Shown piece after piece: positions 1 through 29,958 of a stretch of DNA of 42,259 nt; within the stretch, counting starts at the first letter, position 1; every line of letters starts with the position of its first letter. The position numbers were made by a program, and so were the translations under genes. Under the pieces are notes generated by a model. The model saw nothing but the letters and a program-made list of their open reading frames with translations, did no database searches and was not told where the DNA came from. The stretch is from a bacterium (GTDB taxonomy: Bacteria > SAR324 > NAC60-12). The stretch covers positions 1 to 42,259 of the forward strand of contig CBDDTI010000437.1 of assembly GCA_965233585.1 (NCBI GenBank), written 5' to 3'.

Positions 1-78
1 AAGAGATCTTCCCGGTAATCAAAAACTTTGTGGCAAAGATGCATGCTTCTTTTGGTTAATCAGTCAGTGGAAGTCAAT

Positions 79-576
79 ATGGGATCTGGAAACAGTGCTC
101 CAGTCGAACGTGCACAAACCGTGGAAACAGAAGCACATCAAGATGTGTTCGAACTTCGGTTCGACCACCTCGCATTTGGTGGCACTTCCATCCTCTTCTT
201 GGCCGTGTTGATTGGACTCTGTTGGTTCTGTCGGCGACGCAACAAGCGTCGGCAGCGCAAACGGCAAAATAAGACGTGTCATTGTCATCAGTCGCCGACA
301 AGCCAACCAGCCTTGCCGATGAACCAATCCTACCCGATGCAACCGATGTCGCCGCCGATGCCAGTGCCGATGCCATGGTATCCCGTGATGCCATACCAAC
401 ATCATCCGACCACCAGCAATTGGCCTCCAGCACCTTCACCATTTGCCTCGGAACCGGGTCGCTTCACGGAGATCCTGGAGCAAACGACCTCGCAGCCACC
501 AAGACCGCCACCGCTGCGGGCAAGGGAGCTTCCACCGCCGACGACTTCGAAGAATGCAGAAGCCACCGCTACATAA
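79..576 (+). CDS. Small N-myristoylated single-pass membrane protein (165 aa), FAST-protein-like architecture; accessory ORF of an LTR retroelement
   Basis: ATG at 79 gives MGSGNS (MGxxxS myristoylation motif). It is followed by a ~32-aa ectodomain, the hydrophobic segment FGGTSILFLAVLIGLCWFC, the polybasic stretch RRRNKRRQRKRQNK and a Pro-rich tail. An upstream frame ends at TAA 57-59, and PPT/LTR lie downstream. Confidence 0.75.
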   Translation: MGSGNSAPVERAQTVETEAHQDVFELRFDHLAFGGTSILFLAVLIGLCWFCRRRNKRRQRKRQNKTCHCHQSPTSQPALPMNQSYPMQPMSPPMPVPMPWYPVMPYQHHPTTSNWPPAPSPFASEPGRFTEILEQTTSQPPRPPPLRARELPPPTTSKNAEATAT

Positions 577-1310
577 TTAATTCGCATTTAATTTATTTTT
601 CCTTACTTTGATTATTGTATTTTTATGTACCTCGCCGCGGCCACTCCGTCACAGCCGCGGATGAACCCGCTTCCACATTCACATCAGCTTCATCGCGGAC
701 GCCTTGCGGCTCTGTCACAGCCGCAGTGGGTTCCGCCTCATAGCCTCGAACTCATCCTCCATTCTGGCGAGATCTTCAACTCATCGAGTGAATCGAATTC
801 ATCGAACGAAATTATCTCGTTCATCGATATTCATCCCCACTCGTTGATCCGGCCTGAATTAACTCACGCATGACAATCTTTTTCGGTGCTCGTGCTGGTA
901 CGTCTTCCGTCGTTTGGCATTTTTGCCTGCCATTTGATCTGTTCCCTCTTTGAGTAACCTGTCTATCATGGGCGACAAAGAATGCGACAGTTGTTTCTGA
1001 GCACCAACGTTGTCATGTCGGTTAGATATACCTTCCGTATCTCACCGATCTTTCATCCCGGATCATGGGTGTATTTCTCGCCCCAAGTCTTCATCACGGC
1101 GCTCTTGCGAGCGCCTTTTCTCCGTGACTACACGAAGTCCGGCATCACCTCATCTCATAACGGGCCAGGGGTCCCGTCTGTTCAGTTCGGCAATATGCCT
1201 AACCCCTATAGGCCCGGAGTGCGGACTGCCCTTGTGGCATCGGCCCGGGACTGCCCCAGACTGTGACACCTCCAAATTTCTTTTATATTTCATCCACAGG
1301 TCAATTGACT

Positions 1311-1432
1311 GGAAGGGGGGTGTTACGGTCTATCTATCCATCTTCTATCCATCTATCTATCATCATCATATATCATTGTATATATTCATGACTCACAGAT
1401 AAATATAGACAGCATTCGCTTATCAGCAGACA
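1311..1432 (+). mobile_element. Polypurine tract plus 3' LTR (short or truncated) of an LTR retrotransposon
   Basis: GGAAGGGGGG (1311-1320) is immediately followed by TGTTACGG (1321). A candidate end ...GACA is at 1432, after which Polinton-like sequence begins. The 5' LTR is outside the window, so the right boundary is tentative. Confidence 0.6.
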
Positions 1433-1473
1433 TTAATGAACGATTTTTAAAATAAAAAAATTTAATTTTGTAC

Positions 1474-2597
1474 CGTCAAATCCGACAAATATGATTCAAC
1501 AGTATTTATTGATTTGTCGCATGTTTCTGGTGCAGCATTAACAACAGTTGGAGAGAAGTTATGTCCGTAACTTCTACATGTGATTCAGGAATAGAATCTT
1601 GACTGACTTTTTGGAGAAGTGTTGTCATTTCAATAAACTGAAAATAAATAGGAAAATTATAATCATATCAAAAGCAGAAATTTTTAAAATTAGAAAATAC
1701 TTCAGAATTGGGTTGATTGCATTGGGCTAGTTGGCGATTCAATTTCCATATTCTAGCTGATAAGGCCTTCACCAAAAAACATATGATCATTAGAATAATG
1801 AATACCAATAATTTAAATCCGTCTGCAAAATAGTAATATAATCATCAGAGAAAATAAAAATAAAACAGAGACAAATCAGACTTACTGTCGAAAGTAAAAT
1901 TGTTGAGAAGAAATTTGCCAATTGTCATCTTCGGTGTGGTGATTTTGGGTTTTGCGGTGGTGGTGGTGGTGGCAATGGTAGAGGTAATTGTTGGGGATGT
2001 GGTGAATGGAGTGGTAGAGGAGTTTGTTGTGGTTGTGGAGCTGGTGGTTGATTCAGTGGAAGTTGTTGAGGTTGTGGGGCTGGTAGTTGAGGCAATTGTT
2101 GTGGGTGAAGAGCCACTGGTTAATGGAGTAGTATAGGTGATTGTTGTAGTTGTGGGACTGGTGGTTGATACAGTGGAAGTTGTTGAGGTTGTGGAGCTGG
2201 TGGTTGATACAGTGGTGGTGACACTGTCGATGGTAGAGGCAATTGATGTGGTTGAAGAGATGGTGGTTGATGGGGTGGAAGAAACTATTGTTGCGGTTGT
2301 GGTGCTGCTAGTCGGTAAAGTAGAGGTAGTTGTAATAGCGATGGTGATCGAGGTGGTAATTGTAGTGGTCGTGAACGGGACGGTGGTAGACGTAGTAATT
2401 TCAGCGGTGGTGGAAGCGGTGGTTGTAGAGCTAGTGGTTGTCAATTGAGCGGTAATAGTCGTGTTGAGAATGGAATTGATTAAAATGGGGGAGAATCCAG
2501 AAGCCTTTTTTAAGATATTTTCCCAAAAAGTAATGTTTTGGGCGAAGGAATTTTGCATCAAAAAAGTGACACAAAAAAATGAAATGAAGAATTTCAT
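1474..2597 (-). pseudogene. Thr-rich mucin-like type I membrane glycoprotein, spliced and truncated; homolog of 32850-33898
   Basis: Signal peptide MKFFISFFCVTFLMQNSFA and a Thr/Ser-rich ectodomain. Exons 2597-1886, 1822-1701 (TM LLVFIILMIICFLV) and 1637-~1474 have GT-AG introns at the same positions as the intact copy. Exon 3 has an apparent frameshift and the last exon is replaced by the LTR. Confidence 0.7.
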
Positions 2598-2857
2598 GAT
2601 GGGATTGGGTGTTGATGTAAATTATTCAAGATTTTAAATTAAAGTGAGGACTTTTAATTATGGAATTTGTGATTTTTATTTATATGATAAAAAATCACGG
2701 TCAAAACGCGCTCATTTACATATTTATTATAAATAAGAGACGATTTTTGGCTGCATATACTGTGCATAAAATGTTGCGCGCTTTAATGCACATTACACGC
2801 ATGAATTGAATGCAAAGGATTGAAAGACACGCGTTGCAAAAAATAAGACATTGCACA

Positions 2858-6661: not shown

Positions 6662-6694
6662 AGCAGGGGGGTGATGCTTCATATCCGGCTCTTG
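6662..6694 (+). mobile_element. Possible PPT and first ~23 bp of a 3' LTR
   Basis: AGCAGGGGGG followed by TGATGCTTCATATCCGG, then an abrupt junction to inverted env sequence. No second LTR copy is available for confirmation. Confidence 0.4.
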
Positions 6695-7326
6695 AGCGAA
6701 GTATAGAGGGTGTAAGGATCAATTCGTGAAGTTTGGAGTAAGTATGAAAAGGGGTGTTTCAGGTGTAAGGTGTCGTAAACATAGTCTGTGGTGTTGGGGC
6801 AGGTGTTGGACGGGAAGGTAGGCCTGAGAAATTCCGTTTTAACAAATTTGCGCAACAGTTTCTGAATGAGAGTGCTAAGTTGTTTTACCAGTTTAATTGC
6901 CACTATCTGATGGCTGGGAATTGCACATATGGTGGGGTAGGCCGCTGAACAATAAACTTGTGTTATTTTTCCGGTACTTAAGTTAATGACGGTGCAAGGT
7001 TTGGTGGAGACTAAGTTTCGGTCCATGGTGAGTGTGTCTTTAAGAAGAGCTGGAACAGGTTTCCCTGAGGCGAATGTTAGTTTTTTAGTTTTACCAGAGT
7101 ATCCAGTGTCTAACCAAGTTTGTGTAATATCCGGAAAAGTGGAATGGTAGAAATTTAGATCCTTGTCTGAGTGGATTTCAACAATAGGTACTTCCAATGG
7201 CAGGCAAAAGTCATGTGCTTGTTGAAAGGTGAGAAATCGCTTTTCAACAATGTACTGGTATTCAGGGTGGCTAATTGTGATACCATCTGGTACCTTGGTT
7301 GTTTGGCTCAACAGAAGGTCGACATG
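6695..7326 (-). pseudogene. Inverted fragment of gypsy env-like ORF (copy of 15222-15853)
   Basis: 632-bp reverse complement; translation identical to the env ORF from HVDLLL to LYTSL. Confidence 0.95.
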
Positions 7327-7404
7327 GACTTTTCTAATGACTACTGAAATTACCACAGTGCCATTTTAAAACTTTTGCTTTACCAAATTCAGCTAGATGT
7401 TACT

Positions 7405-8540: not shown

Positions 8541-9361
8541 TGTTAAATCCAAACTTGAAAACAGCACGGGTTTTGCATTGCCAATTTTTGTGAAAATGCT
8601 CTGGATATCTTGGTTGGGATAGGCCAAAGGATTCAGTGTTTTGTTCAATGCCTTGTAATTGGCAACCATCCTATCTCTGATTGGCTGTCCAGGCAAAGGA
8701 TTTTTCTTAACAAGGAATAAAGGGGAGGCATACGGGCTTATTCCCCGGGTCATTAAACCCCTCTCAATATAAATATCAATTATTCGTTTCAGCCTATCCC
8801 TCATTTCACCGTGCAGAGGTATGACCTTGCTTCTAACTGGGGGACCCGTTGCTCCAAAATCTTCGATCATGTAGATGTCCGGATCCAAACAACCCGGGTC
8901 AAACTCATCCCTGGGCACCAGTTTAGCATAGTCCTGCGTGAAAAATGCTATCAGCCTATCAGAAATTTGTTTCGGGAGGCCTTGCTTCAGGATCCCGTGG
9001 GTCCAATCGGGTGAAGGCGCGGTAGTAAGGTTTGCCAGCCGCTCCAGCACCACCTCATCCATGTCAACTTCGGTATCTATCTTGTCTGTATTATTGTTGG
9101 GGACCAAGGGGTCACTAGGATTTCTTAATTCAGGTGGTAATTGTGTGTCTTTTGTAGGGATGGAGTGGACAATGTTGATGTTGGATTCGAAGGCCTTGTC
9201 TTTGTGCAAGGTTCTGAATACATTTCTAATCATGAAGTCTTTGCTAACCAACATCATTTGTTGTCCCTTCCAAATGAGGTTGGCCTTCAAATGTGCAAGC
9301 AGGTCCAATCCAATCAGGTTGTCACCTGATCTTACTACATAAAAGGGCCAATGGACTAATG
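8541..9361 (-). pseudogene. Inverted fragment of gypsy pol, protease end to RT start (copy of 11208-12028)
   Basis: 821-bp reverse complement with near-identical translation (CLDPD vs CLNPD). Confidence 0.95.
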
Positions 9362-9657
9362 ACAACAGCTTCTAACCTTCTTTTCCTTATCCAGCGAACC
9401 TACCATAAACTTGGCTGACCTATTACAATCTTTCTCTCTGCTTCCACCTAACCATGACATTTTCCAAGTAGATAATTTGATTTGTATCTGTCCAACTAAC
9501 TCCTCCTCAACAGTAAGTACTCCAGATACTGTCACCATAACGGAGGATAACACCACCACACTTCCTAATGACCTCCCTACCCAAGGTGATGGAGAGAATA
9601 CCTTTTATGACAACATGACGATCAATGATGATGGCACCATTTCCTTTGGTAATGTTA
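9362..9657 (+). pseudogene. Direct fragment of gypsy env-like ORF (copy of 15866-16161)
   Basis: 296-bp direct repeat with few substitutions (QGDG vs QGYG, NMT vs NIT). Confidence 0.95.
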
Positions 9658-10009
9658 GACAGCTCCTTTGAATGAAGTGACTGTCCCTCTAATTGGTGGT
9701 TGCTTGTATCTTTGGATGGAAATGAAGTGAATGTTTTGGGTGCTTAAGAGGTTGCAGCATAGAGATGGAATGGGGTTTAGATTGCCTCTTTGCCTGTAGT
9801 AATCTTCCCTCTAATTGATGAATTTTGGTGTCTTTGGATGAAGGCAAGAAACCAATGTTTTCAGTTGGTCAGAGGTGATTATTTTTTGAAGCTTTATGTG
9901 GACGCTGAAAACAGGTGGAGAGATGGCAGGAGGAGAGCTTTGAAGTTTATTGTGTGCGCTTGTGCTCTGAGGTGCGCACCACTGTTTGAGAAAATGAAAT
10001 ACTAAATCG

Positions 10010-10699
10010 TTGGAACAGAGACGTATTGATTTGGAGGGAAAATCGATTCGAAAGAATCATTTTATGGAAGATGCTCTCCAGATTTTTGGTGAGGAAATTT
10101 CTGTCAATCCTCACATGTCACAAGCCGTTCTCGAGGAACTAACCTTGAGAAAAGCAATGGAGTCTGTGCCCCCATCTTTGAAATTGGAGGTGCACAGGAA
10201 AATGGCAAGGGCAACATGCCTTAATTTTATGGAAAAACTAACAGCAATTGCTGACTTGGTAGAATCTACTATCCCAAAAAGGGAACCTACTCTCCCCATC
10301 AGGCAGGTGCCCCTTCCAAGTCAGGGGCCTCTCCCAAGTCAAAGCCTCCACAAAAAAACCCCATCTGCTATGCAGATTTTAAAGGACGACTATCATAGGG
10401 CCATACAGAATGGGGCTGTTTTTGAACAACTCCCACCTTCAGATGGGATTATGTACAATAGAAGGGGAGATTATTACTTGCCCAGAAGTCGCCCGTTAAA
10501 TTTTCCGGTCTTGAACAATGGGAGATTCTCTGCAGCTGCTCTCATTCACTTTGCACAAGCTTGTGCCAAATGTGGTGAACCATCTCACTTGATTGGACAC
10601 CCTAACTGTGCATACGCAAGGGACCCTTTGCTAACGCAAAATTGCCAAAGATGCAACAGGGGGTTGCACAGAGAGGATCACTGTTTAGCTTTCATTTGA
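10010..10699 (+). CDS. gag: Gag, C-terminal part (probably 5'-truncated) with two zinc knuckles
   Basis: CAKCGEPSHLIGHPNC and CQRCNRGLHREDHC directly upstream of pol. Confidence 0.85.
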   Translation: MEQRRIDLEGKSIRKNHFMEDALQIFGEEISVNPHMSQAVLEELTLRKAMESVPPSLKLEVHRKMARATCLNFMEKLTAIADLVESTIPKREPTLPIRQVPLPSQGPLPSQSLHKKTPSAMQILKDDYHRAIQNGAVFEQLPPSDGIMYNRRGDYYLPRSRPLNFPVLNNGRFSAAALIHFAQACAKCGEPSHLIGHPNCAYARDPLLTQNCQRCNRGLHREDHCLAFI

Positions 10700-13600
10700 G
10701 ACAGGGGGGATAAGTGGGATCGGCGAAACCATCGCCATCATTATACCACTCAGCATACCCATCCCATAAACCGAAATTGTCATCTCCATTCTTCACATCG
10801 TCACTTCCCACTAAAATCCCCCAAACACACTAAAACCCATGCTCAGAACACTCATTACACAAAAAAACAGAAAATATGGAAGGAAAGGTTCCGACCTTAC
10901 TCCAATAAAAAACAAAAAAATTCACGCCATTTCAGAATCAATAAAATACTGAGACAAAGGTTGGGTAGTCTCCATGCCAATGTAATAATCGACTATAAAA
11001 CTTCAGTAGAATTTCAAATTGACCCGGGTGCAGTAGTGTCAATTTTAAATGAAAATACCCTTCACCAACTTTTGAGATCCCATCCTCGCGCGGTTCGCCC
11101 CTTAGAAAATTATCGACCCCTAAGAATAACAGATTATAGCAACAACACAATATCCACCGTAACCCCACACACCCTCGCGTTCATGATTGGGGACCATCCC
11201 CAATCAACATTAGTCCATTGGCCCTTTTATGTAGTAAGATCAGGTGACAACCTGATTGGATTGGACCTGCTTGCACATTTGAAGGCCAACCTCATTTGGA
11301 AGGGACAACAAATGATGTTAGTTAGCAAAGACTTCATGATTAGAAATGTATTCAGAACCTTGCACAAAGACAAGGCCTTCGAATCCAACATCAACATTGT
11401 CCACTCCATCCCTACAAAAGACACACAATTACCACCTGAATTAAGAAATCCTAGTGACCCCTTGGTCCCCAATAATAATACAGACAAGATAGATACCGAA
11501 GTTGACATGGATGAGGTGGTGCTGGAGCGGCTGGCAAACCTTACTACCGCGCCTTCACCCGATTGGACCCACGGGATCCTTAAGCAAGGCCTCCCGAAAC
11601 AAATTTCCGATAGGCTGATAGCATTTTTCACGCAGGACTATGCTAAACTGGTGCCCAGGGATGAGTTTGACCCGGGTTGTTTGAATCCAGACATCTACAT
11701 GATCGAAGATTTTGGAGCAACAGGTCCCCCAGTTAGAAGCAAGGTCATACCTCTGCACGGTGAAATGAGGGATAGGCTGAAACGAATAATTGATATTTAT
11801 ATTGAGAGGGGTTTAATGACCCGGGGAATAAGCCCGTATGCCTCCCCTTTATTCCTTGTTAAGAAAAATCCTTTGCCTGGACAGCCAATCAGAGATAGGA
11901 TGGTTGCCAATTACAAGGCATTGAACAAAACACTGAATCCTTTGGCCTATCCAAACCAAGATATCCAGAGCATTTTCACAAAAATTGGCAATGCAAAACC
12001 CGTGCTGTTTTCAAGTTTGGATTTAACATCAGCTTTTACTTCGGTACAAATCAAACCAGGGTCAAAGGCCATGATGCAATCCAGTGTCATCACGGACTTT
12101 GGTCAATTTCACATGACACGATTAGGTATGGGTATTTCCAGTAGTCCAGCCATCTTTTCCATAGTCATGGACAAAATTTTGACAAACATACCACCACCCA
12201 GATTCAAAAACTATCCCGCACAACATTCCTTTGTAGTTTGGTATCAAGATGATGTGTGCATCTTCACCACACAAGCTGAAGACATGTCCCAGAATGACCT
12301 CTATCAGCTACACTTATTGCAAATTAATGTGATCTTGGCAAAGATTTCAGCTGCGGGCTTAAAAATTAATCCTGCAAAGTGCAAATTCTTTCGCACAGAA
12401 ATTCCTCTGTTAGGACGACTGATCACTAGGCAAGGGTTCACACCTCTTGAGAAGCACATCCAACAGCTGAAAGATTTTCCAAGACCATCTACAGTGAAAG
12501 GAATCCAGCAGTTTATGGGGACATGCAATTTTCTGCGGCAGCACATCCCTAACTTTAGTCAAAAAATTGCACCTCTGACTGAGTTGTTACGGAAGAACAC
12601 CCCTTTTATTTGGGCAGATACCCAAGACAAGGCTTTCAAAACCCTGAAAAATGATATCTGTAATACCAGCCAGACCACCTATCCTGATTTTGAGGAAAAC
12701 CTTTATTTGTATGTTGATGGTAGTAATGTTGCTGTTGGAAATGTCCTCCTGCAGATTAAGACTATACCAGATGCTGAATTTAATAAAGCAAAAGGGCTCA
12801 AGGATGATGAACTTGACCAACCCATCCTTCTTCAACAAGGCAAAAATGTGCCTCAAGTAACAGATGTGTGGGGAAATCAGGTTGATTCCATCAAATTTGA
12901 TCCAAACAGGCACTTGATCATGCCCATTGCCTTTGGCAGTAAAGCACTGACACCTAGTCAGAAACAGTATTCAACCATCAAGCTCGAGGCCTTGGCCATT
13001 GTCACTGCATTCCATCAACATCAAGATATTCTGAAGGGTGCCAAAAGGATAGTTCTTGTCAGCGATTCCTCTCCTCTTCTATACATTCTGAAAGGAAGCA
13101 CAAAAATTAGTTTGCTAGAAAGGTGGTCACTATATCTGCAATCTTTCAATTACAACATCTGTGTTAGTCATGTTTCAGGGACACACAACACAATTGCAGA
13201 TATGCTTTCCCGCAGATCCGCATTCATGGTTACTGACAAACCCTCTGATAACTTTAATACCAAAACAGCCTTTGAGTTTAAGTCACCCTACCCTATTGGC
13301 TCGGTCATTACCTATAGACACCTTCGAGAAGCTTTGGAAAAAGATCCTTCTTTAGTTCAACCCATAAATAACATTGAATCGGCTGAAATGAGCCCTGTTA
13401 GCAAAAGCTCTGCAAATCCTTTGGAACCTGCTGATCCGATACCAAAAGCACAAATTGCAAAGGTCAACTCACCTTTGTCTCTAGTGGAGGAATTGAAACC
13501 CTTAGTTTCAAGCTCAGCCATTGTAGCCGCGCAAGCCAGTGATGATTTTTGCAATCATATAAGCTCAAATCTGGAAAAACATCCCAAATTTATAAAAAGC

Positions 13601-15013
13601 GACAAAGGTGAATTGCTCTTCAAGGCAAACATTCAGGGTCAGGACCTGCAAGTGCTGGTGGTTCCAGAAACTTTGCAACCCATCATCATGGCTTATTACC
13701 ATGCTGATAACCACTGTGGGGGCAACTCCTTGGCAGGAGTTCTAACCTCCAGGTTCTACTGGCCTAATATCCGAAAAGACTGCTCAGACTTTGTGAGTGG
13801 CTGTCACCTATGTGCCATCTTTCGGGCACAGAAAAATCCAGAAACTGAGCTGGGTAAAACCTCTGACTACATTCCCAGATTGAAAACATATTGCTGGTCT
13901 GTAGATATTTTAGAAGGGTTCCCTGTGTTTGGACCATACAATGGACAAATTCTGGCAGTGGCTGAGCATTACACTCATTTCAGAGTCTTAAGACCACTAA
14001 AGAAATCTCATGCCACAGAAATTGCAAAAATCTTGGAGGAGGTCATTACCACCTTTGCACCCTCCATGTTCATTTCGGATAGGGGAACTAACCTTTTGAT
14101 GAGTCAACAAGTCAAAGAACTCTTTACTAAATATAATATCAAGGGCCATGTCACTGTACCTTACAGCGGCAAGTCTCATGGTATGATTGAAGCTTTGCAC
14201 AAAAGTGTCAGTGCTTTAATCCGGATCTGTGTGGAAGAACAACAGACTGCGAACTGGCCCAGCCTAATTCCATATATTCAACTGACCTTGAATCAAAAGA
14301 AGTTGTGCTACTTTGACAACTATTCTCCTTTTGAGTTGATGTTTGGCATGGAACCAATTCGTAGTCGTCGAGACCCACCCACCGAATCTGAGATATTTCG
14401 GACTCCTGACAACACCATGGCTGCCTGGCACAAAACAAACAGTGCCATCCAGGCCACCATTGAGAAACATTTCCGGAAATTGCAAAGACAGTATGACACT
14501 CTAACACTCAAACCTCGCCCTTTCCCGGTAGGCAGCTTTGTATATCTGCGTGATTTGCGACCAATCCCAAATAAAAAAATCAAGGCTAGGTATTTTCAGC
14601 AACCCCTCAGAGTAATGGAAGAGAGGCCACAATCATTATTGCTGAAATCCTTTGATGGGAGGTTGCTAAAAGTACACAAAGATAATTGTAAACGGGCACA
14701 TCCCAGAGGAGAAAAAGCCTTTGGCTCACTGCCCACTAGAGTGAAAATGGCATTGGGAACTCCATTTGCCTATAGTGACCTAAAAGATCTCATGGATAAG
14801 GAACAAATACCGGAATTTTTTAAAGATAAAGACACCATACCCCCACCTGAACCAATACAAACTAGGTCCAGGACGAAAAAAACGAACCACCCGGGGGTAA
14901 AGGTTACCGTACCGACAGACATCCCACCCATGGTGGATATAAACCACTTAGATGATCCCGAGCCTATGCAAGACATAGCACCACCAATGCTAGAGACCAT
15001 CTTTGAGGAATGA
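10700..15013 (+). CDS. pol: Pol polyprotein (protease, RT, RNase H, integrase), in frame with gag
   Basis: Protease IDPGAVVSIL. RT SPYASPLFLV, LDLTSAF, YQDD, KCKF. RNase H VDGS, EALA, ADMLSR. Integrase HADNH..CHLC, VDIL, SDRG, IEALH. The frame is open from 10700, straight after the gag TGA. Confidence 0.95.
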   Translation, partial: DRGDKWDRRNHRHHYTTQHTHPINRNCHLHSSHRHFPLKSPKHTKTHAQNTHYTKKQKIWKERFRPYSNKKQKNSRHFRINKILRQRLGSLHANVIIDYKTSVEFQIDPGAVVSILNENTLHQLLRSHPRAVRPLENYRPLRITDYSNNTISTVTPHTLAFMIGDHPQSTLVHWPFYVVRSGDNLIGLDLLAHLKANLIWKGQQMMLVSKDFMIRNVFRTLHKDKAFESNINIVHSIPTKDTQLPPELRNPSDPLVPNNNTDKIDTEVDMDEVVLERLANLTTAPSPDWTHGILKQGLPKQISDRLIAFFTQDYAKLVPRDEFDPGCLNPDIYMIEDFGATGPPVRSKVIPLHGEMRDRLKRIIDIYIERGLMTRGISPYASPLFLVKKNPLPGQPIRDRMVANYKALNKTLNPLAYPNQDIQSIFTKIGNAKPVLFSSLDLTSAFTSVQIKPGSKAMMQSSVITDFGQFHMTRLGMGISSSPAIFSIVMDKILTNIPPPRFKNYPAQHSFVVWYQDDVCIFTTQAEDMSQNDLYQLHLLQINVILAKISAAGLKINPAKCKFFRTEIPLLGRLITRQGFTPLEKHIQQLKDFPRPSTVKGIQQFMGTCNFLRQHIPNFSQKIAPLTELLRKNTPFIWADTQDKAFKTLKNDICNTSQTTYPDFEENLYLYVDGSNVAVGNVLLQIKTIPDAEFNKAKGLKDDELDQPILLQQGKNVPQVTDVWGNQVDSIKFDPNRHLIMPIAFGSKALTPSQKQYSTIKLEALAIVTAFHQHQDILKGAKRIVLVSDSSPLLYILKGSTKISLLERWSLYLQSFNYNICVSHVSGTHNTIADMLSRRSAFMVTDKPSDNFNTKTAFEFKSPYPIGSVITYRHLREALEKDPSLVQPINNIESAEMSPVSKSSANPLEPADPIPKAQIAKVNSPLSLVEELKPLVSSSAIVAAQASDDFCNHISSNLEKHPKFIKSDKGELLFKANIQGQDLQVLVVPETLQPIIMAYYHADNHCGGNSLAGVLTSRFYWPNIRKDCSDFVSGCHLCAIFRAQKNPETELGKTSDYIPRLKTYCWSVDILEGFPVFGPYNGQILAVAEHYTHFRVLRPLKKSHATEIAKILEEVITTFAPSMFISDRGTNLLMSQQVKELFTKYNIKGHVTVPYSGKSHGMIEALHKSVSALIRICVEEQQTANWPSLIPYIQLTLNQKKLCYFDNYSPFELMFGMEPIRSRRDPPTESEIFRTPDNTMAAWHKTNSAIQATIEKHFRKLQRQYDTLTLKPRPFPVGSFVYLRDLRPIPNKKIKARYFQQPLRVMEERPQSLLLKSFDGRLLKVHKDNCKRAHPRGEKAFGSLPTRVKMALGTPFAYSDLKDLMDKEQIPEFFKDKDTIPPPEPIQTRSRTKKTNHPGVKVTVPTDIPPMVDINHLDDPEPMQDIAPPMLETIFEE

Positions 15014-15047
15014 TTTTTGGAAAGGAGCTAATCATTTTATTTGCAGG

Positions 15048-16376
15048 ATGATATGCATAATCAGTCTTATCATAGGACTTCACATAGATGTCACCTGCTC
15101 AACCACTAACCATACCACATCTGGCAAACCCAGCACGGACATCCCTGATGACAACCTCTGCCCAACATCTTTCATTTACTCCTTCCAGGAACTCCAGGAG
15201 GCAATCGAGTTAAAAATGGTACATGTCGACCTTCTGTTGAGCCAAACAACCAAGGTACCAGATGGTATCACAATTAGCCACCCTGAATACCAGTACATTG
15301 TTGAAAAGCGATTTCTCACCTTTCAACAAGCACATGACTTTTGCCTGCCATTGGAAGTACCTATTGTTGAAATCCACTCAGACAAGGATCTAAATTTCTA
15401 CCATTCCACTTTTCCGGATATTACACAAACTTGGTTAGACACTGGATACTCTGGTAAAACTAAAAAACTAACATTCGCCTCAGGGAAACCTGTTCCAGCT
15501 CTTCTTAAAGACACACTCACCATGGACCGAAACTTAGTCTCCACCAAACCTTGCACCGTCATTAACTTAAGTACCGGAAAAATAACACAAGTTTATTGTT
15601 CAGCGGCCTACCCCACCATATGTGCAATTCCCAGCCATCAGATAGTGGCAATTAAACTGGTAAAACAACTTAGCACTCTCATTCAGAAACTGTTGCGCAA
15701 ATTTGTTAAAACGGAATTTCTCAGGCCTACCTTCCCGTCCAACACCTGCCCCAACACCACAGACTATGTTTACGACACCTTACACCTGAAACACCCCTTT
15801 TCATACTTACTCCAAACTTCACGAATTGATCCTTACACCCTCTATACTTCGCTACTTGCCTTAAAACAACAGCTTCTAACCTTCTTTTCCTTATCCAGCG
15901 AACCTACCATAAACTTGGCTGACCTATTACAATCTTTCTCTCTGCTTCCACCTAACCATGACATTTTCCAAGTAGATAATTTGATTTGTATCTGTCCAAC
16001 TAACTCCTCCTCAACAGTAAGTACTCCAGATACTGTCACCATAACGGAGGATAACACCACCACACTTCCTAATGACCTCCCTACCCAAGGTTATGGAGAG
16101 AATACCTTTTATGACAACATCACGATCAATGATGATGGCACCATTTCCTTTGGTAATGTTACCACCATCTTGAATCAATTTGGTTTCTCAACCCCAGATT
16201 TGATAAATCTGGTTTGCACAGTCATTGTTGCAATTGTGAGCCTCCTGACAGGTGCACAAATCATCATCCTATGGAAAAGACAGGCCAGGAACAACCAGGA
16301 GCCACCCATCCCTATTCACCAAATTCGAAGTCATGAACCCCTACTTCAAAATCAACCGATTATCAGCATAAGATGA
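15048..16376 (+). CDS. Env-like type I membrane glycoprotein with a C-type lectin-like domain
   Basis: Signal peptide MICIISLIIGLHIDVTC after a splice acceptor TTTTATTTGCAG (AG 15045-15046). CTLD-like pattern LTFQQAHDFC..IVEIHS..TWLD..CTVIN..VYCS..TIC. Multiple N-x-S/T sites and a C-terminal TM LVCTVIVAIVSLLTGAQIIILW. Confidence 0.8.
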   Translation: MICIISLIIGLHIDVTCSTTNHTTSGKPSTDIPDDNLCPTSFIYSFQELQEAIELKMVHVDLLLSQTTKVPDGITISHPEYQYIVEKRFLTFQQAHDFCLPLEVPIVEIHSDKDLNFYHSTFPDITQTWLDTGYSGKTKKLTFASGKPVPALLKDTLTMDRNLVSTKPCTVINLSTGKITQVYCSAAYPTICAIPSHQIVAIKLVKQLSTLIQKLLRKFVKTEFLRPTFPSNTCPNTTDYVYDTLHLKHPFSYLLQTSRIDPYTLYTSLLALKQQLLTFFSLSSEPTINLADLLQSFSLLPPNHDIFQVDNLICICPTNSSSTVSTPDTVTITEDNTTTLPNDLPTQGYGENTFYDNITINDDGTISFGNVTTILNQFGFSTPDLINLVCTVIVAIVSLLTGAQIIILWKRQARNNQEPPIPIHQIRSHEPLLQNQPIISIR

Positions 16377-17083: not shown

Positions 17084-17500
17084 CTACTTGATTAATGGAC
17101 GGCTTCTAGTCCTGTTGCTTGGATAAAAGCATAAAAGAGATCCTTCCTTGTAAATATATTGCATCAAGTTTTGCATCAGTCTATGCACTGTCAATACATC
17201 TTCATCTAAATTAGGCAAAACCCAAATGGATTTTGTCTGGTCTAAAATTTCGGACTTTATGTCTTCTTCCGAAGAATTTATAGATGTTAATTCGTTTTTT
17301 AGCGTGATGAAACAAGGTTGGCCTTTTGACAAAGTCAATTGGTTGTAATTGTAATGTAATCCAATAGACACTACCCCAATTTCCCATTCTCTATTTTTCA
17401 AGTCTAAACTTTGTGGGAATAAATTGGTAAAAGAATTCAAAGTATTTTTGTCATCCGTATCGGAACTAGCGTTTGACACGCAATAAATATTATAATCCAT
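17084..17500 (-). pseudogene. Minor capsid protein (penton), N-terminal part, 3'-truncated
   Basis: SNAS...NTLNSFTNLFPQSLDL...WEIGVVSI matches the typical Polinton penton N-terminus. The ORF runs into gypsy-derived sequence. Confidence 0.75.
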
Positions 17501-17506
17501 TCCGCG

Positions 17507-18595
17507 TTATTGTGGCATATCAACTATGTCTTTTTCGTATGTCCAACTAGGGTTTTTATACCCTTTCCATTTTATTAAAGCCATTTTTTCTCCGGTTTTT
17601 TTATCTTTTTTTGTCCGAAGAATTTTTTCGATGGCAAATACTTCCGGCTCATCTACGGGTGTAAGTTCACTCTCATAAAAATTTCCTTCCAAAGTTTCAT
17701 CCTGTTCTAAAGTCTCCAACTCATAAGTGGGTTTTGGCAAACGTGTAGAAATTGATTTTATTTTAAAAATTTCTTCTTTGAATTGCGGTGTAAATCCTCT
17801 GTCAAATTTTCCCTTCATAATGCTAATACGCACAGTTTGGCCGATTTTGTATTTTGGTTTCATTCTTTTAATCTTTGAATAAACCAATTCTTGTTTTCTT
17901 CTAATGTGATAGGTTTTTCCGGGGAGTTCTGCTTCAGCGGGTGTCATTCCAATCATGCGATGTTTACGATTGTTGTAGGTATGGACAAGAAATGGTAACG
18001 CGTCAATGTACCTGTCAGTATTTTCGTGAGTCATGTATTTGAACAACAGGTTTTTTAAAGTTCGGTTAAATCTTTCCACAAAAGGGGCGTGCACAAAATT
18101 ATTGCTGTGTAACAAAAGAATGTTATTGTTTTTGCAGTAGGCTTGAAATAATTTATTCTTAATTTCCGCTCCTTTATCGGCTAAAATTCTACGCGGAAAT
18201 TGTTTTGCTCTTTTCATAATAGATTCAAACCCTTCCATAAATGTTTTTGCCGTTTTATTAATAAGTGGTTCTACAAAGGCGAATCGTGTAAAAATATCGA
18301 TGGCTGTCAAAAGGTATCTATTAGAATCATTTTGTTCAGCCAAATTTCCTAAATCTATAAGGTCAATTTGAAACTGATACCGTTTCCGATAAGCAAATGT
18401 TGGATTTCTCGGTCTGGGAAATTTAGCCTGTTTGTGTAATGTGTAAGAGTCTGTTCCTTTTAGCCACTCCTCGATTAACGTCAGAGGGATTTTTTTCCCA
18501 TAATAATGATAAATTAGCGCGGGAGACGCAAAAGCTATTGGTGAACCCGGTTTCGCGTATTCTTTTAAAAAAGTCTCTTTCGTTGTTATCGACAT
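17507..18595 (-). CDS. int: Retroviral-like (rve) integrase with C-terminal chromodomain
   Basis: DDE motifs QIDLID, ADKGAE, VERFNRTLK. C-terminal FAIEKIL...LIKWKGY..SW. Confidence 0.95.
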   Translation of the reverse strand: MSITTKETFLKEYAKPGSPIAFASPALIYHYYGKKIPLTLIEEWLKGTDSYTLHKQAKFPRPRNPTFAYRKRYQFQIDLIDLGNLAEQNDSNRYLLTAIDIFTRFAFVEPLINKTAKTFMEGFESIMKRAKQFPRRILADKGAEIKNKLFQAYCKNNNILLLHSNNFVHAPFVERFNRTLKNLLFKYMTHENTDRYIDALPFLVHTYNNRKHRMIGMTPAEAELPGKTYHIRRKQELVYSKIKRMKPKYKIGQTVRISIMKGKFDRGFTPQFKEEIFKIKSISTRLPKPTYELETLEQDETLEGNFYESELTPVDEPEVFAIEKILRTKKDKKTGEKMALIKWKGYKNPSWTYEKDIVDMPQ

Positions 18596-18997
18596 TTAAA
18601 ACAGAGGTTCTTTAGAAATTTTGCGCCTTTTTTTCCTAGATTGCGTGATTGACGAGGATTTCCTTTTTTTGTTTGAATTTTGAGTTCGATAATCGTCGTT
18701 GCTATCGGCTTGTCGGGCAGCGTTAAGCAAAATACCTCGCGTAGCGGATTTCAAACGTTGTTTTGCTTTTCTGCCCACCGGTTGACCCTCCAAAGCTTCT
18801 ATTGCCGTTTCTACAGCCGCTCTTGTCGCTTCTTTCTTTAAAGCTTTTCCTACAGATTTTATCGGGGCGCTTTTAGCTACACGTCCAATAGTTTTTATCG
18901 TTGATTTCGCTACCGGCATTAATCCGCGAAAAATTCCGGAAAAAAGCGATCCAATTCCCGAACCTCGTTGCCAATGTAAACCGCTGTGGTAATTCAT
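18596..18997 (-). CDS. Basic virion core protein with amphipathic N-terminus (adenovirus pVI-like)
   Basis: QRGSGIGSLFSGIFRGLMP, the conserved Polinton Q.G.G motif followed by an amphipathic helix. Basic C-terminus. Confidence 0.75.
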   Translation of the reverse strand: MNYHSGLHWQRGSGIGSLFSGIFRGLMPVAKSTIKTIGRVAKSAPIKSVGKALKKEATRAAVETAIEALEGQPVGRKAKQRLKSATRGILLNAARQADSNDDYRTQNSNKKRKSSSITQSRKKRRKISKEPLF

Positions 18998-19006
18998 ATA
19001 TGTATT

Positions 19007-19765
19007 TTATTGATTTAGACTTTTACGACATCTGTACAACGACATAACACTGACGCCTAAAATGTGAGCCATATTTTTGACGCTTAAATACCTCAATTTG
19101 GATTCTTTTAAAAAGGCATAAGCGCATGCAGCTAATAAAGTTCTTGGAGCAAAAGAACTATTTTCATTTTTTTTTAATATTTGTTCAACGGACGTCATTT
19201 CTTGATAATTTAACTGCAGCGGCTGTAAAAAATATTCTTTCATATCTTTTGCCTTTATGTAATTGTCTAATTTATTCATGTCAGTCAAATCCCGTCTGTA
19301 TAATTTCATCCAACGCCACACTATCTTTGGATTAATGCCGACTTCTTGACACAAATGACTTATCGGGCGGGGAATTTTTTCTTTTATTAACCCCTGATAC
19401 AACGTCATTACCACCAATCCTTTAGCATCCATTTTAATTTTTCCGCCTTTTTGATAATGCCACGCTGCTATATCTGACCATAGATTTAAAATAACATTTG
19501 TAACATCATTATTTAAATGTAATTTATTACATAAAATTTTTAAAATATTTTTTTCTTTCTCTAAATGCTGGTTTTTTTGTTTAATTTCTTTATCAAATGT
19601 TTTTATTTTGTCCCATTCTGTTTCCAAATTTGATTTTGTTAAATTATAACAATATATTTTATCAATAACTAATCCACACTCGGTACACACCACGTCTCCT
19701 TGCCTGGTGTCTTCTACTGGATATTGATGATTGCATATTTTAGTATAATCTACTTTCTCGTGCAT
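19007..19765 (-). CDS. TFIIB: TFIIB-like transcription initiation factor
   Basis: Zn ribbon CNH...EDTRQGDVVCTECGLVID and a B-reader-like EWDKIKTF. Two cyclin-fold-like repeats: LCNKLHL...PRPISHLCQEVGI and PRTLLAACAY...SVKNMAHILGVSVMSL. Confidence 0.85.
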   Translation of the reverse strand: MHEKVDYTKICNHQYPVEDTRQGDVVCTECGLVIDKIYCYNLTKSNLETEWDKIKTFDKEIKQKNQHLEKEKNILKILCNKLHLNNDVTNVILNLWSDIAAWHYQKGGKIKMDAKGLVVMTLYQGLIKEKIPRPISHLCQEVGINPKIVWRWMKLYRRDLTDMNKLDNYIKAKDMKEYFLQPLQLNYQEMTSVEQILKKNENSSFAPRTLLAACAYAFLKESKLRYLSVKNMAHILGVSVMSLYRCRKSLNQ

Positions 19766-19821
19766 GATTTCGATGTTTATTGTATAGATATCAAAACTCG
19801 ACTAAATAAACATTATTCACA

Positions 19822-20364
19822 TCATTCAATTTTATATTTTTTTAATAATTTAATAATAATTTTTATTCCTTGTTTAGCATCTTCTTCGCTGGAGGCTCCA
19901 ATTATAACTATTTTTCCTGACGAAAATATTAAAGCTGAACATTTTTTTATTTTTAAAAATACGCCTGGGAATTTTTCTGGATCATATCTCTTAAGAATAA
20001 TTTCAAAATCTTTATTCGATTTTAAATGGTTGTATAATTTTAATAATTTAATCTCTTCTTTTGATTGATACAAACAAGTCATGTTTTCTACTTTAAATAT
20101 TTCAACAACAAATTCGTTACTTATAATAAATTTTAGTTCGTCTAATGCTTTCGCAATGTGTTCTGTAGAGGGGATTTTTGTAATGTTTACGTGAAAATGA
20201 CGATTTTGCTTTGTTTTGGTAAATATAATAAAGGAATATTTTTTTCTTATTACAACAAAATTATTATAACGTTTTATTGTATTATCAGTATTAAAAGAGA
20301 TTTCGTCGCTGTTGATAAGATGAACTTTACAACTAATTTTTACATTGCTGACCAACACTTCCAT
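19822..20364 (-). CDS. TBP: TATA-binding protein-like (180 aa)
   Basis: Two-repeat structure VSNVKIS / VENMTCL. The second repeat YDPEKFPGVFLK...ALIFSSGKIVIIGASSEED is canonical TBP. ATG at 20364. Confidence 0.92.
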   Translation of the reverse strand: MEVLVSNVKISCKVHLINSDEISFNTDNTIKRYNNFVVIRKKYSFIIFTKTKQNRHFHVNITKIPSTEHIAKALDELKFIISNEFVVEIFKVENMTCLYQSKEEIKLLKLYNHLKSNKDFEIILKRYDPEKFPGVFLKIKKCSALIFSSGKIVIIGASSEEDAKQGIKIIIKLLKKYKIE

Positions 20365-20370
20365 TTTGTT

Positions 20371-21714
20371 ATGGGCGTACCTGAAAAAAGTGGAATTGCC
20401 GGATTGGCCGTTGAACAAAACGACGGCACCGAAAGTGGTTTAGCGCTTCACTCACCGTTAGAAGTAGAAACGGGTTTATTAGATGGAGCTCACGTTATTT
20501 ACAATAGCGTGGCTTCTATTACCAACACCGGACCGGTCGAATTTCTTGTTCCTCGCGATAACGAATGCTCTTTTATACTGAATCAAACCAGACTTAGCGG
20601 CTATTTTGTAGTGACAAATGACGATGGTGAACAGGTAAAAAATGATACTAAAGCCACACTGGCTAATCATTTTGCCGCTTGTTTATTCAGCCAAGTAGAA
20701 GTATATTTAAACGGGGTCCAAGTAGCTGATTTAAGTTCAGCGGTCACTTATCCTTGGAGAATGTTCATACAATCATTTTTAAGTTACAATTCAGAGGTGA
20801 AAAAAACTTATCTGGCTGCTGAAGGGTATTATCCCGAAAATGCTGACGAAGTTGATACCATAAATCTTACAGCCGCCACACCTTCTTTGAATAAAAGAAA
20901 GCAGTTAATTATGGACGGTAAAAAAGTGTATTTTAATACGCGCTTAGCCGTTGATCTGTTTGACACCGACAGATTTTTACCCCCAAATGTGGATATCAAA
21001 ATCAAGCTGGTTAGATCCGCTGAAAAGTTTGGTTTGCTTCAAGATGCTGCGGCAGAAAAACCTTTTAAAATTGTTTTAAAAGATGTTAAACTACATATGA
21101 GAAAAGTGTTGCCCACATTATTGCTGAGAGAAAGTTTTAAAAACAAACTTTTAAAAGAACCGTGCTACCTACCTTTTAGCGCTACACGTTTAAGACATTA
21201 TGTTATTCCTCAAGGTGTGTCGTCCTTCAACATCGCTAATATCGCTAATGGTACTTTACCGAAACAAGTGTTTTTTGTGATGGTTCACAATCAAGCCATG
21301 TCACACGCCCCGGACAAAAACCCTTTCAACTTTCAACATTTTAATCTGTCTACTTTTAATTTAAAAAAGAACGGTCAATGCGTATTTCCCAGACCATTTC
21401 AACCTAATATAAACGAGGGGGACGCCATTGACTTGTATCGGCATTTATACGACAGTATTGGCATTTCGCACGGCAATCAATCCATCGGTTTAACGTATGA
21501 ACAATATTTAAAAGGAAGATTTTTTCTAGCGGCCGATTTAACACCGGATCAATGTAATTCGTTCCACGTGCATCCAGAAAATTACGGAAATTTAGATTTA
21601 GAATTGGCTTTTTCCGTAATAACTCCTCATCCTATATACGTCCTGGCTTTTTCTGTTTTCAACTCCGGCATCAAAATAGATCAATTCCAACAAGTTATAA
21701 AAGGAACAAATTAA
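20371..21714 (+). CDS. Major capsid protein (double jelly-roll, Polinton PY), 447 aa
   Basis: GPVEFLVP, LFSQVEVYLNG, TYPWR, PPNVDIKIKLVRS, NPFNFQHFN, DLTPD and GNLDLEL match the Polinton MCP. Likely ATG at 20371. Confidence 0.92.
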   Translation: MGVPEKSGIAGLAVEQNDGTESGLALHSPLEVETGLLDGAHVIYNSVASITNTGPVEFLVPRDNECSFILNQTRLSGYFVVTNDDGEQVKNDTKATLANHFAACLFSQVEVYLNGVQVADLSSAVTYPWRMFIQSFLSYNSEVKKTYLAAEGYYPENADEVDTINLTAATPSLNKRKQLIMDGKKVYFNTRLAVDLFDTDRFLPPNVDIKIKLVRSAEKFGLLQDAAAEKPFKIVLKDVKLHMRKVLPTLLLRESFKNKLLKEPCYLPFSATRLRHYVIPQGVSSFNIANIANGTLPKQVFFVMVHNQAMSHAPDKNPFNFQHFNLSTFNLKKNGQCVFPRPFQPNINEGDAIDLYRHLYDSIGISHGNQSIGLTYEQYLKGRFFLAADLTPDQCNSFHVHPENYGNLDLELAFSVITPHPIYVLAFSVFNSGIKIDQFQQVIKGTN

Positions 21715-21717
21715 ATC

Positions 21718-22200
21718 ATGGAAAACGGATTATCAAATATCTTTTTATCCAATTATATTCAACCAAGATGTAAATATTTCATCGGGGTTTTTTCAAGCGA
21801 TAATTTGCCGTCTGATTCGCTTAAGTTGCCTTGTTGCTTAATCACTAACTTATCAAAAAAAAATCAAAAAGGATCACATTTCATAGCGATGTATATTAAC
21901 GGAAAAAATCAACTCTATTATTTTGATTCATTCGGTTTTTTACCGCCGATATGGAATCGATCTTTAATGAAGTTCTTACGACCTTGGATAGAAAAAAACT
22001 CATTCAAAACAATTCTGTCTTACTCCATTCAGGATTTTCATTCATTGTTTTGCGGCTGGTACGTGACCGCTTTTTGTTTATCCGTGGGCAACAATTTAAT
22101 GTCTCCTCAACAATTTGTTAAAATATTTGTAAAAAAACCCAAAATAAAAAATGATGAAATTGTAACTCATTTTATAAAAAAACTTGAAAATAAACGATGA
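21718..22200 (+). CDS. Adenain-family cysteine protease (virion maturation)
   Basis: FIGVFSSD, GSHF (His), YFDSFG (Asp), IQ....FCG (Gln/Cys). Confidence 0.95.
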   Translation: MENGLSNIFLSNYIQPRCKYFIGVFSSDNLPSDSLKLPCCLITNLSKKNQKGSHFIAMYINGKNQLYYFDSFGFLPPIWNRSLMKFLRPWIEKNSFKTILSYSIQDFHSLFCGWYVTAFCLSVGNNLMSPQQFVKIFVKKPKIKNDEIVTHFIKKLENKR

Positions 22201-22217
22201 TATATATTTTACTTTTA

Positions 22218-23063
22218 TTATAATTTTGGGTATTTTCCCGGAAAAAGTAATTTTTTTTTAACAGCATCTGCATCAGTTTTTGAAAGTTTTTTTGATTTAG
22301 ATCTAGTTTGTACGGGAGAAATAGTAAAAGTTTTCTTTTTTGCACCTCCTGATCCTGTTTTAAGGGATGACATTGAAACTGAAGGAGATTTTGATGCTTG
22401 TGAAGAGACCGAGGCTATATCTTTACCGATTTTTTCTGTGTCAAATATAGACAATTCTTTCATATGATCTCTTACAAGGTGTTTGCCGAATTGCGCATCG
22501 TCAACATACTGCTTCCCGCATGCGCTAAAAGGACAAACTATTTTGCCGTCTGAATTTTTTTGTGTCAAAGCCTTTATAATAGGCGAATTTCGCCATTCTG
22601 GCACGTCAGAACTTAAAGTATCGTCCTTGCTTTTTGGTTTTGAAGCGGTATAAAACAAGTCTGGATCGGGTTCTCTTTCCATAATGGGAGTAGTGGGTGA
22701 AAACTGAGCGGTATTTTCTTTTTGTTGGGGAGTTTGAGCGGTTGTTGATCTTGAAATAGATTGGTACGTGCGACCCGCACTGCTATCGATTTGTACTGGC
22801 GGCATAACATTCGATATATTATCAGAACCAAAACGATACAATTTATCGCCGCTTTGATTCATTTTTTGCCTGTCTTGTAAATTTTTAAAATTAATGGCAT
22901 TTTCAATGTAATTGGTCGTATTTGGTTTTTCATTCATAGAAATAAGTTCTTTTTTTGTTTCATTATCTTCTATATTTTTTATTAAAGAATGATATAGCCT
23001 TTTGGGGACTAAAAACATAGAGTATATTTCATCATTTGTTTTTCTTTTCACGCCTGAACTCAT
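22218..23063 (-). CDS. Polinton hypothetical protein with a C2H2 zinc finger and basic tail
   Basis: ATG at 23063 just after the PW stop. N-terminal MFLVP motif typical of the ORF following PW. Zinc finger CPFSACGKQY....FGKHLVRDH. Confidence 0.75.
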   Translation of the reverse strand: MSSGVKRKTNDEIYSMFLVPKRLYHSLIKNIEDNETKKELISMNEKPNTTNYIENAINFKNLQDRQKMNQSGDKLYRFGSDNISNVMPPVQIDSSAGRTYQSISRSTTAQTPQQKENTAQFSPTTPIMEREPDPDLFYTASKPKSKDDTLSSDVPEWRNSPIIKALTQKNSDGKIVCPFSACGKQYVDDAQFGKHLVRDHMKELSIFDTEKIGKDIASVSSQASKSPSVSMSSLKTGSGGAKKKTFTISPVQTRSKSKKLSKTDADAVKKKLLFPGKYPKL

Positions 23064-23067
23064 CCTT

Positions 23068-23442: not shown

Positions 23443-23489
23443 TTTAACAGTAATTGTTTTTAATTTTTCTTAAATAGATATGAAATTTT

Positions 23490-24185: not shown

Positions 24186-24242
24186 TTTTTTAATTTTAAA
24201 AAAGAAACTACAAAATTTTCTTTTAAATAAAAGTAATGATTT

Positions 24243-29037: not shown

Positions 29038-29087
29038 TTCCAAAGCTTACTTGAATTTTTTATATACAACAAAATAAGTCCTTTAAA

Positions 29088-29843: not shown

Positions 29844-29958
29844 TTCTGTTAAAATTCTGAAACAAAATTTATTGACGCATGAATTTTGGAAATAATATAT
29901 ACAAACACATTAAAACTATATAGCTCAGACAAAATATAAACAAATTACTTAATACAAA

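Follow-up and report, generated by a model that had tools for sequence, protein, structure and literature searches.

A conserved accessory membrane protein with a FAST-like layout, encoded 3' of pol in a Ty3/gypsy-type retrotransposon that has no conventional env

The FAST protein p14 of reptilian orthoreovirus is small and bitopic; its ectodomain is short and lipidated, and a polybasic juxtamembrane cluster leads into an endodomain that is disordered and rich in Pro. Retrotransposon FAST-like proteins were not described until 2025, and then solely in insects (Voichek et al. 2025, PMC11952523), where sORF2 is the FAST-like protein of env-less MDG1-group Ty3/gypsy elements; according to that paper, sORF2 has an aromatic residue past the transmembrane (TM) helix and an ectodomain of some 30 residues, and is found together with capsids in invasive protrusions of follicle cells. 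The same paper reports 105 candidates in arthropod Metaviridae consensus sequences, with the gene downstream of pol in 7 of 22 Lepidoptera consensus sequences, and stresses that such proteins are not findable by sequence similarity, homology searches with sORF2 having been unproductive. Also proposed there as FAST-like are the fish nackednavirus protein smORF2 and the ORF2 proteins of two avian groups, megriviruses and poeciviruses (67–115 residues), and sORF2/FAST-like genes of env-less Metaviridae have been traced across drosophilids (PMC13486581). Here we analyse P0001, the product of an open reading frame (ORF) at positions 79–576 of a 42,259-nucleotide stretch of DNA (the window) that begins at base 1 of contig CBDDTI010000437.1 (C437) in assembly GCA_965233585.1, a bin of 12 Mb and 747 contigs. 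This ORF very probably encodes a selected accessory membrane protein, FAST-like in layout, of a long terminal repeat (LTR) retrotransposon.

The ORF is open on the forward strand from an ATG at 79–81 to a TAA at 574–576 and has a 165-residue product. A reading of the DNA from its letters alone (hereafter the sequence-only reading) had listed for this product a MGSGNS myristoylation motif, a hydrophobic patch (VFELRFDHLAF), one TM helix ending in CWFC, a polybasic stretch and a Pro-rich tail, and we found every one of these in P0001. At the level of the motif, the MGSGNSA start matches the N-myristoylation pattern used here, G-{EDRKHPFYW}-x2-[STAGCN]-{P}. VFELRFDHLAF spans residues 23–33 and is hydrophobic and alternating, and the single hydrophobic segment occupies residues 31–49, with CWFC (C48-W-F-C51, residues 48–51) at the TM end. 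The 15 residues following the hydrophobic window, which include RRRNKRRQRKRQNK (residues 52–65), carry a net charge of +9, and the tail is 22% Pro. The AlphaFold2 model, built from a 44-sequence alignment, comprises one helix with none predicted past residue 65, the rest being disordered; its mean predicted local distance difference test (pLDDT) score is 65.9, rising to 83–97 over residues 31–60 and lying at 67–74 in the C-terminal motif region (128–154).

The protein family of P0001 had not been named before. Of 179 candidates from a word-indexed search of 5.8 billion proteins, 35 are relatives at E ≤ 0.01; all 35 come from ENA assemblies, and none carries a name or a Pfam domain. Against 1.84 billion representatives, HMMER found 50 cluster representatives at E ≤ 0.001 (29 at ≤ 1e-10 and 4 at ≤ 1e-30); these too are metagenome proteins without names. 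Members are about 145–200 residues long, with identity extending down to about 30%. The relatives were first aligned in 36 rows (A1). A second alignment (A2, 44 rows) holds the 42 of 69 proteins (P0001–P0069) that start at the family start, plus the two other genomic copies described below; the remaining 27 proteins were left out because they are N-terminally extended, truncated or fragments.

Conservation in these alignments peaks in the N-terminal predicted ectodomain, which is the most conserved part of the family. Mean pairwise identity is 0.64 over residues 1–30, falling to 0.37 in the TM segment, 0.28 in the basic stretch, 0.31 in the middle, 0.35 in the C-terminal motif region and 0.19 over the last 13 residues. 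Five columns of A1 are invariant (E16, H20, Q21, R27 and D29), and conservation of 90% or more extends to the MGSGNS start, P8, the VETEAHQD stretch, F24, F28, H30, G34-G35-T36 and R128-F129-E131. In A2, all 44 members have one hydrophobic segment, beginning at residue 29–36, and 43 of the 44 have a net charge of at least +4 over the 15 residues past it; the N-terminal segment is net negative in 43/44. The myristoylation pattern is present in 39/44 (P0014, P0041, P0060, P0062 and P0066 miss it), a Tyr or Trp lies at the cytosolic TM end in 41/44 and a Cys at that end in 34/44. Past the TM, CxC or CC occurs in 22 members, R[FI]xE[IL] in 31 and LPxP in 28. Conservation of Gly2, the TM segment and the basic patch across copies, which the sequence-only reading had proposed as a check, is thus seen in the 44-row alignment. 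Met-Gly is also retained at the family start in 12 of the 15 proteins whose called frame runs upstream, and gene-caller bias is therefore no explanation for the conserved start.

The layout is also rare by itself. We scanned the 12-Mb assembly by architecture, with no use of homology, for a TM start at 21–46, a charge of at least +4 after the TM, a non-positive N-terminus, no second TM and the myristoylation pattern. Among 38,370 ATG-start ORFs of 60–250 residues, 438 had the myristoylation pattern and only three the full layout, namely ORF 79–576 and its paralogues on contigs C228 and C476. Dropping the myristoylation pattern gave four ORFs, three from the family and one on a bacterial contig. 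Searches against described families returned nothing specific: no Pfam family scored above cut-off for P0001, a PDB profile search gave chance TM matches only (best E 0.083), and the best ESM Atlas score, 0.81, was to generic single-pass proteins. A scan of genome, metagenome and viral contig collections with A1 found no confirmed related locus, and no fused form of 351–2000 residues scored; the latter is weak evidence, and the known fusion P0063 (474 residues) was also missed. Our literature search found no earlier description of the family, nor of such genes outside insects, though further supplements could hold one, and a 2026 eLife paper on env-carrying metazoan elements does not mention sORF2 or small TM ORFs.

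The 5' half of the element lies off the contig, and because of this the element was classified through its paralogues. A profile search of the assembly found C437 itself (E 1.6e-70), C228 (1.4e-32) and C476 (1.7e-4), with two further hits insignificant; the three genomic DNA copies share 23–34% protein identity. On C228, the ORF starts 12 nt past the TAG of an integrase (Integrase_H2C2 plus rve) and is followed, about 110 nt past its end, by GACTGGGAGGGGGG and an LTR beginning TGTTAC. On C476, the paralogous ORF shares an element of 5,589 bp with an intact gag-pol of 1442 residues, in which we identified Asp_protease_2 (457–519), RVT_1 (685–831), RT_RNaseH (919–1028), Integrase_H2C2 (1135–1187) and rve (1217–1292). 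The two LTRs of this element, 176 nt each, are 100% identical, and it is inserted into a Maverick/Polinton-like element. The order protease, reverse transcriptase, RNase H, integrase is therefore that of the Ty3/gypsy type. On contig C106, a related LTR (about 100 nt) precedes a TGGCG primer-binding site and a 928-residue frame for gag, protease, reverse transcriptase and RNase H, and P0063 is a single fusion of an integrase, a mini-TM segment and a P0001-type domain.

The ORF lies consistently 3' of pol in all three genomic copies, that on C437 being placed via its polypurine tract and LTR (Table 1). From 1434 onwards, the window matches 11 other host-repeat loci; in the nine that we read, the repeat runs on upstream with the element absent. 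A Ty3/gypsy-type LTR retrotransposon that lacks a conventional env has its 3' end at positions 1–1432 of the window, with gag-pol and the primer-binding site shown on paralogues (C476, the C228 integrase and the 5' half on C106) rather than on the C437 copy. A retroviral or errantiviral Env glycoprotein is large and has a signal peptide, a fusion domain and a TM anchor at its C-terminus; P0001 itself is unlike this, at 165 residues, with an N-proximal TM and no Env family match in Pfam. The sequence-only reading had placed an LTR-retroelement accessory ORF between an upstream stop and a polypurine tract and LTR, and had asked what kind of element lies upstream. The paralogues, with Ty3/gypsy integrase or gag-pol 5' of the ORF, and the window's own polypurine tract and LTR agree with its placement, with two corrections. 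The upstream stop (TAA 57–59) ends a mini-TM ORF, ORFa, rather than pol or env, and the polypurine tract and LTR begin about 735 nt past the ORF stop and do not adjoin it.

ORFa is cut by the contig start in the window. Its relatives are 42–57 residues long, with a Met-Cys start and one TM. The tail preserved in the window aligns with the C476 ORFa and with the ends of the N-terminal extensions of P0006, P0008, P0027, P0048 and P0059, which run Met-Cys, a TM and then W-[ED]-[ED], and the segment is also internal in P0063, after the integrase. On C476, ORFa (L015 2115..1942, minus strand) has 57 residues and a single TM and starts 3 nt past the pol stop, its TAA and the following ATG overlapping as TAATG, while the C228 copy is without ORFa; a protein-database search with the ORFa alignment scored no separate mini-ORF protein. 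Across the three copies, the gaps between successive ORFs are 3, −1, 12 and 19 nt. The candidate splice acceptor in Table 1 falls just past the ORFa stop. Downstream of the ORF, the two hairpins of the 3' untranslated region (UTR) share GUCACAGCCGC (minimum free energy −43.6 kcal/mol, z −3.1). P0007 and P0018 have read-through tails in which the same nucleotides seem to be kept, each time in another frame, hinting at a cis-acting element in the 3' UTR. Rfam gave no match on window positions 1–1500.

Table 1. Features of the retrotransposon 3' end, in window coordinates; residue numbers are those of P0001
Feature	Position	Strand	Basis or remark
ORFa tail, last 18 codons and TAA (57–59)	3..59	+	frame-3 translation EIFPVIKNFVAKMHASFG, then stop
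Candidate splice acceptor TTCTTTTGGTTAATCAG, AG 62–63	47..63	+	sequence only
ORFb	79..576	+	intact; 165-residue FAST-like or sORF2-like membrane protein P0001
Residues 1–30, MGSGNSA motif and acidic, highly conserved predicted ectodomain	79..168	+	
TM helix, residues 31–51, CWFC at end	169..231	+	Kyte-Doolittle 2.12; AlphaFold2 helix 28–65
Polybasic juxtamembrane stretch RRRNKRRQRKRQNK, residues 52–65	232..273	+	net charge
CHC di-cysteine motif, residues 67–69	277..285	+	CxC or CC in endodomain of 22/44 members
Residues 70–127, Pro-/Met-rich, poorly conserved, predicted disordered	286..459	+	alignment and AlphaFold2
Residues 128–154, C-terminal motifs RFTEI and PPRPPPLRARELPPP (Arg-flanked polyproline)	460..540	+	conservation
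3' UTR, GC-rich, 734 nt	577..1310	+	two hairpins, about 632–664 and 687–745
Polypurine tract GGAAGGGGGG	1311..1320	+	sequence; matching tracts before C228 and C476 LTRs
3' LTR, 112 nt, TG...CA (TGTTAC...AGACA)	1321..1432	+	host repeat resumes at 1434

Compared with reovirus FAST proteins (p14, p10), P0001 shares the small bitopic layout, the polybasic juxtamembrane cluster and the Pro-rich, disordered endodomain. Size and topology correspond (165 residues, within the roughly 80–200 of the FAST class, no signal peptide, one N-proximal TM after a predicted ectodomain of about 30 residues where the class has about 20–40, and a charge bias, with the N-out/C-in orientation being a prediction), acylation sites correspond as motifs in the proportions of A2 given above, and the polybasic cluster corresponds in P0001 and in nearly every member. 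P0001 differs in being encoded by a retrotransposon, where the reoviruses are dsRNA viruses, in showing no significant homology, and in an ectodomain rich in conserved charged and His residues. The commonest Pfam match of the family is to Orthoreo_P10, sub-threshold and confined to the TM and basic region, in 24/44 members at E ≤ 1 (best 6.2e-4; the next commonest, CcmD, in 9/44), a count that has no matched control, as the assembly holds only four ORFs of the reduced architecture, three of them from the family.

Among described proteins, the family comes closest to insect sORF2. The sequence-only reading had stated that some env-less gypsy elements of insects carry small FAST-like ORFs, and this is published (PMC11952523); the features sought there (a short sense ORF in env-less Metaviridae with a TM and an N-myristoylation motif) are all found in ORF 79–576. 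On the same source, sORF2 and P0001 have in common an env-less Ty3/gypsy element, sense orientation, a single-pass protein predicted to be N-out/C-in with an ectodomain of about 30 residues, a MGxxxS/T motif, and a TM that ends with an aromatic residue and is followed by a polybasic stretch. They differ in length (63–107 residues for sORF2), in the sequence traceability and almost invariant ectodomain of the P0001 family, and in its tail, which is long, rich in Pro and Met, and keeps RFTEI and polyproline motifs across members. The companion here is the mini-TM ORFa, whereas sORF1 is described as a nuclear helix-turn-helix protein; the P0001 family is consistently 3' of pol, whereas only a minority of the insect genes are reported there; and amphipathic motifs, listed for sORF2 and FAST proteins, were not detected above composition-matched shuffles in the P0001 family. 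The nackednavirus, megrivirus and poecivirus proteins, as that paper presents them, have a matching feature list and belong to non-enveloped reverse-transcribing or RNA viruses, their function likewise being inferred from sequence; they lie in other genome contexts, are of the shorter length given above, and are likened by feature list and not by sequence.

A different comparison is with Nef-type proteins, which are myristoylated, carry PxxP-type motifs and have no TM and a folded core, and whose genes follow the last structural gene and precede the 3' LTR. P0001 shares the myristoylated-type start, the PxxP-type motifs and the slot before the 3' LTR, but has one TM helix with the remainder predicted to be disordered.

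Taking these comparisons together with the conservation, we tentatively read ORF 79–576 as an intact accessory gene that acts in the manner of FAST proteins and sORF2 in cell-to-cell passage; as a whole statement, with its function drawn by analogy, this stands close to an even chance but short of it. P0001 would be N-myristoylated at Gly2 and inserted as a single-pass protein, with the acidic ectodomain of about 30 residues outside and the polybasic, Pro-rich tail in the cytoplasm, an orientation predicted because of the positive-inside rule. By analogy with reovirus FAST proteins and Drosophila sORF2, its most likely action would be at the plasma membrane of the expressing cell, where it would cause membranes to appose locally or to fuse with those of a neighbour, so that capsids could pass between cells without an envelope. 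Through its Arg-flanked polyproline (PPRPPPLRARELPPP), the tail may draw in host adaptors of the SH3, WW or profilin type and so drive protrusions, with RFTEI a candidate docking site for host proline-recognition modules, and expression would probably use a spliced subgenomic RNA or depend on reinitiation, the upstream ORFs being closely packed. A more specific version, in which a sequence-conserved minimal fusogen family of non-insect animal Ty3/gypsy elements acts with the mini-TM companion and the invariant ectodomain surface, is possible but rather unlikely.

Several observations weigh against a role in cell-to-cell passage. Hydrophobic moments exceeded those of shuffles (p ≤ 0.05) in 0/44 members for an alpha ectodomain, 2/44 for a beta ectodomain and 0/44 for an alpha endodomain; with no amphipathic motif above composition-matched shuffles, the claim of the sequence-only reading that P0001 has the full architecture of a FAST protein was overstated. 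The invariant polar residues E16, H20, Q21, R27 and D29 suggest a specific binding surface and look more like an interaction surface than a generic fusion patch; no such requirement is known for FAST proteins. P0001 itself scored 12.1 bits against Orthoreo_P10, below the cut-off of 21.4, over the TM and basic stretch only, and three family motifs were without match in two supplement files of PMC11952523. Retroelement context is visible for only four family members, P0063 and the three assembly copies. Voichek et al. (PMC11952523) further state that sORF2-driven fusion could not be reproduced in heterologous cell assays, which leaves the analogy dependent on a mechanism that is not fully proven. 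Lastly, contig C13 ends (52768–53282) in a (TTTAGGG)n array with subtelomeric repeats, and the bin may therefore hold a second eukaryote.

A rival explanation is a membrane-anchored adaptor in the manner of Nef, Vpu or glycoGag, serving assembly, trafficking, egress or host manipulation with no membrane fusion, where the lipid anchor and TM hold the disordered Pro-rich tail at the membrane to dock SH3, WW or ESCRT-type factors or Gag. The slot 3' of pol and before the LTR, the myristoylated-type start and the Pro-rich tail with RFTEI and Arg-flanked polyproline all fit such a protein, as does the failure to detect an amphipathic fusion-type motif in the shuffle test of 44 members. PPxY, P[ST]AP or YPxL-type late-domain strings, found in 13/44 members, point the same way, but P0001 carries none. 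The conservation peak lies in the predicted extracellular N-terminus and not in the cytoplasmic tail, and a purely cytoplasmic adaptor needs no TM plus short lipidated ectodomain; we regard this explanation as unlikely, if a serious one. A viroporin-like protein, whose TM oligomers change membrane permeability or the ion balance of the ER and Golgi and so aid particle maturation or release, would suit a small protein with a single TM followed by a basic cluster, in a viral-type accessory position and adjoining a second mini-TM ORF. The TM is only moderately conserved, however, with no conserved polar pore-lining residue, the peak of conservation is outside the membrane and the tail of about 110 residues is longer than expected, which leaves this option improbable.

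That the ORF is a captured or decaying sequence without present function, whether it arose by chance, is left over from a lost env or is a piece of a host gene, is very improbable and has been largely refuted already. It would account for the failure to match any Pfam, PDB or Atlas family, and some relatives are frameshifted or fused (P0004, P0007, P0018 and P0063). Against it stand the conservation over 50 representatives with a near-invariant start and ectodomain, the three diverged elements of this assembly that each hold an intact copy (the LTRs of one being identical), and an architecture unique to family ORFs in 12 Mb.

The host of the element is probably an animal. THAP, Pao-type, Baculo_F and Monjiviricetes-type glycoprotein ORFs occur on C212, C288, C224 and C93, contigs of the window's composition group, and point towards an animal. 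Among assembly marker matches we counted none for cuticle R&R, none for C1q, one weak C1-set and 41 rhodopsin-type G-protein-coupled receptor matches, only the C93 contig being tied to the window's group by shared repeats. The bin mixes a SAR324-like bacterium with eukaryotic contigs; C408 has internal (TCAGG)n and (TTAGG)n arrays. Four sequencing runs of one study contain a fraction of 0.19–0.24 of the sampled words, and the listing shows no RNA run that contains them.

A second LTR element in the window (9347–16150) has two 300-nt LTRs, at 9347 and 15851, with 97% identity to each other, as well as pol at 10700–15013 and a 460-residue env-like ORF with a C-terminal TM at 14994–16376, in the slot corresponding to ORF 79–576. 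Since neighbouring elements carry an env-like ORF in this position, the small ORF fills the env slot. Elsewhere in the contig group, C212 encodes a Baculo_F-type env ORF beside a Pao-type pol (L018:7377-9218) and C288 a fragment of a Monjiviricetes-type fusion glycoprotein (L021:894-1406); the genome therefore holds several envelope solutions. Part of the env-like ORF of the second element recurs as a 100% identical inverted copy at 6679–7365 (minus strand), with a Lectin_C match, and large perfect inverted duplications in the window (I1–I3) suggest rearrangement or an assembly artefact.

A Maverick/Polinton-like element at about 17500–30800 of the window encodes an rve plus chromodomain integrase, TFIIB-zinc-ribbon and endonuclease VII-like proteins; copies also occur at L017–L026, the relatives on C212, C288, C224 and C93 add a TBP-like protein, and that on C212 also encodes a type-B DNA polymerase. 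A Thr/Ser-rich, mucin-like ORF lies at 1845–2621 (minus strand), its 3' flank (1434–2000) belonging to a repeat family with 11 other assembly copies at 72–91% identity. Long tandem arrays of a 14-nt unit (about 50 copies) and a 12-nt unit occupy the regions 41220–41900 and 25558–25969, and the 12-nt array lies inside open frames, where it would encode short peptide repeats.

The P0001 family is thus a FAST-layout family that can be traced by sequence, with 50 cluster representatives, 3' of pol in Ty3/gypsy elements of a probably animal host that carries conventional-env elements alongside. Even with no cell-to-cell role, it would be a previously unannotated, selected accessory gene of a retrotransposon lineage. 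If P0001 does mediate cell-to-cell spread, the host range of the envelope-free strategy widens, the invariant ectodomain and conserved tail motifs offer handles for mutagenesis, and the family profile would serve to find such genes in other genomes. These would then be the first FAST-like proteins traceable by ordinary homology searches, and envelope-free transmission of retrotransposons from soma to germline would be a widespread, perhaps ancient metazoan strategy rather than an insect peculiarity.

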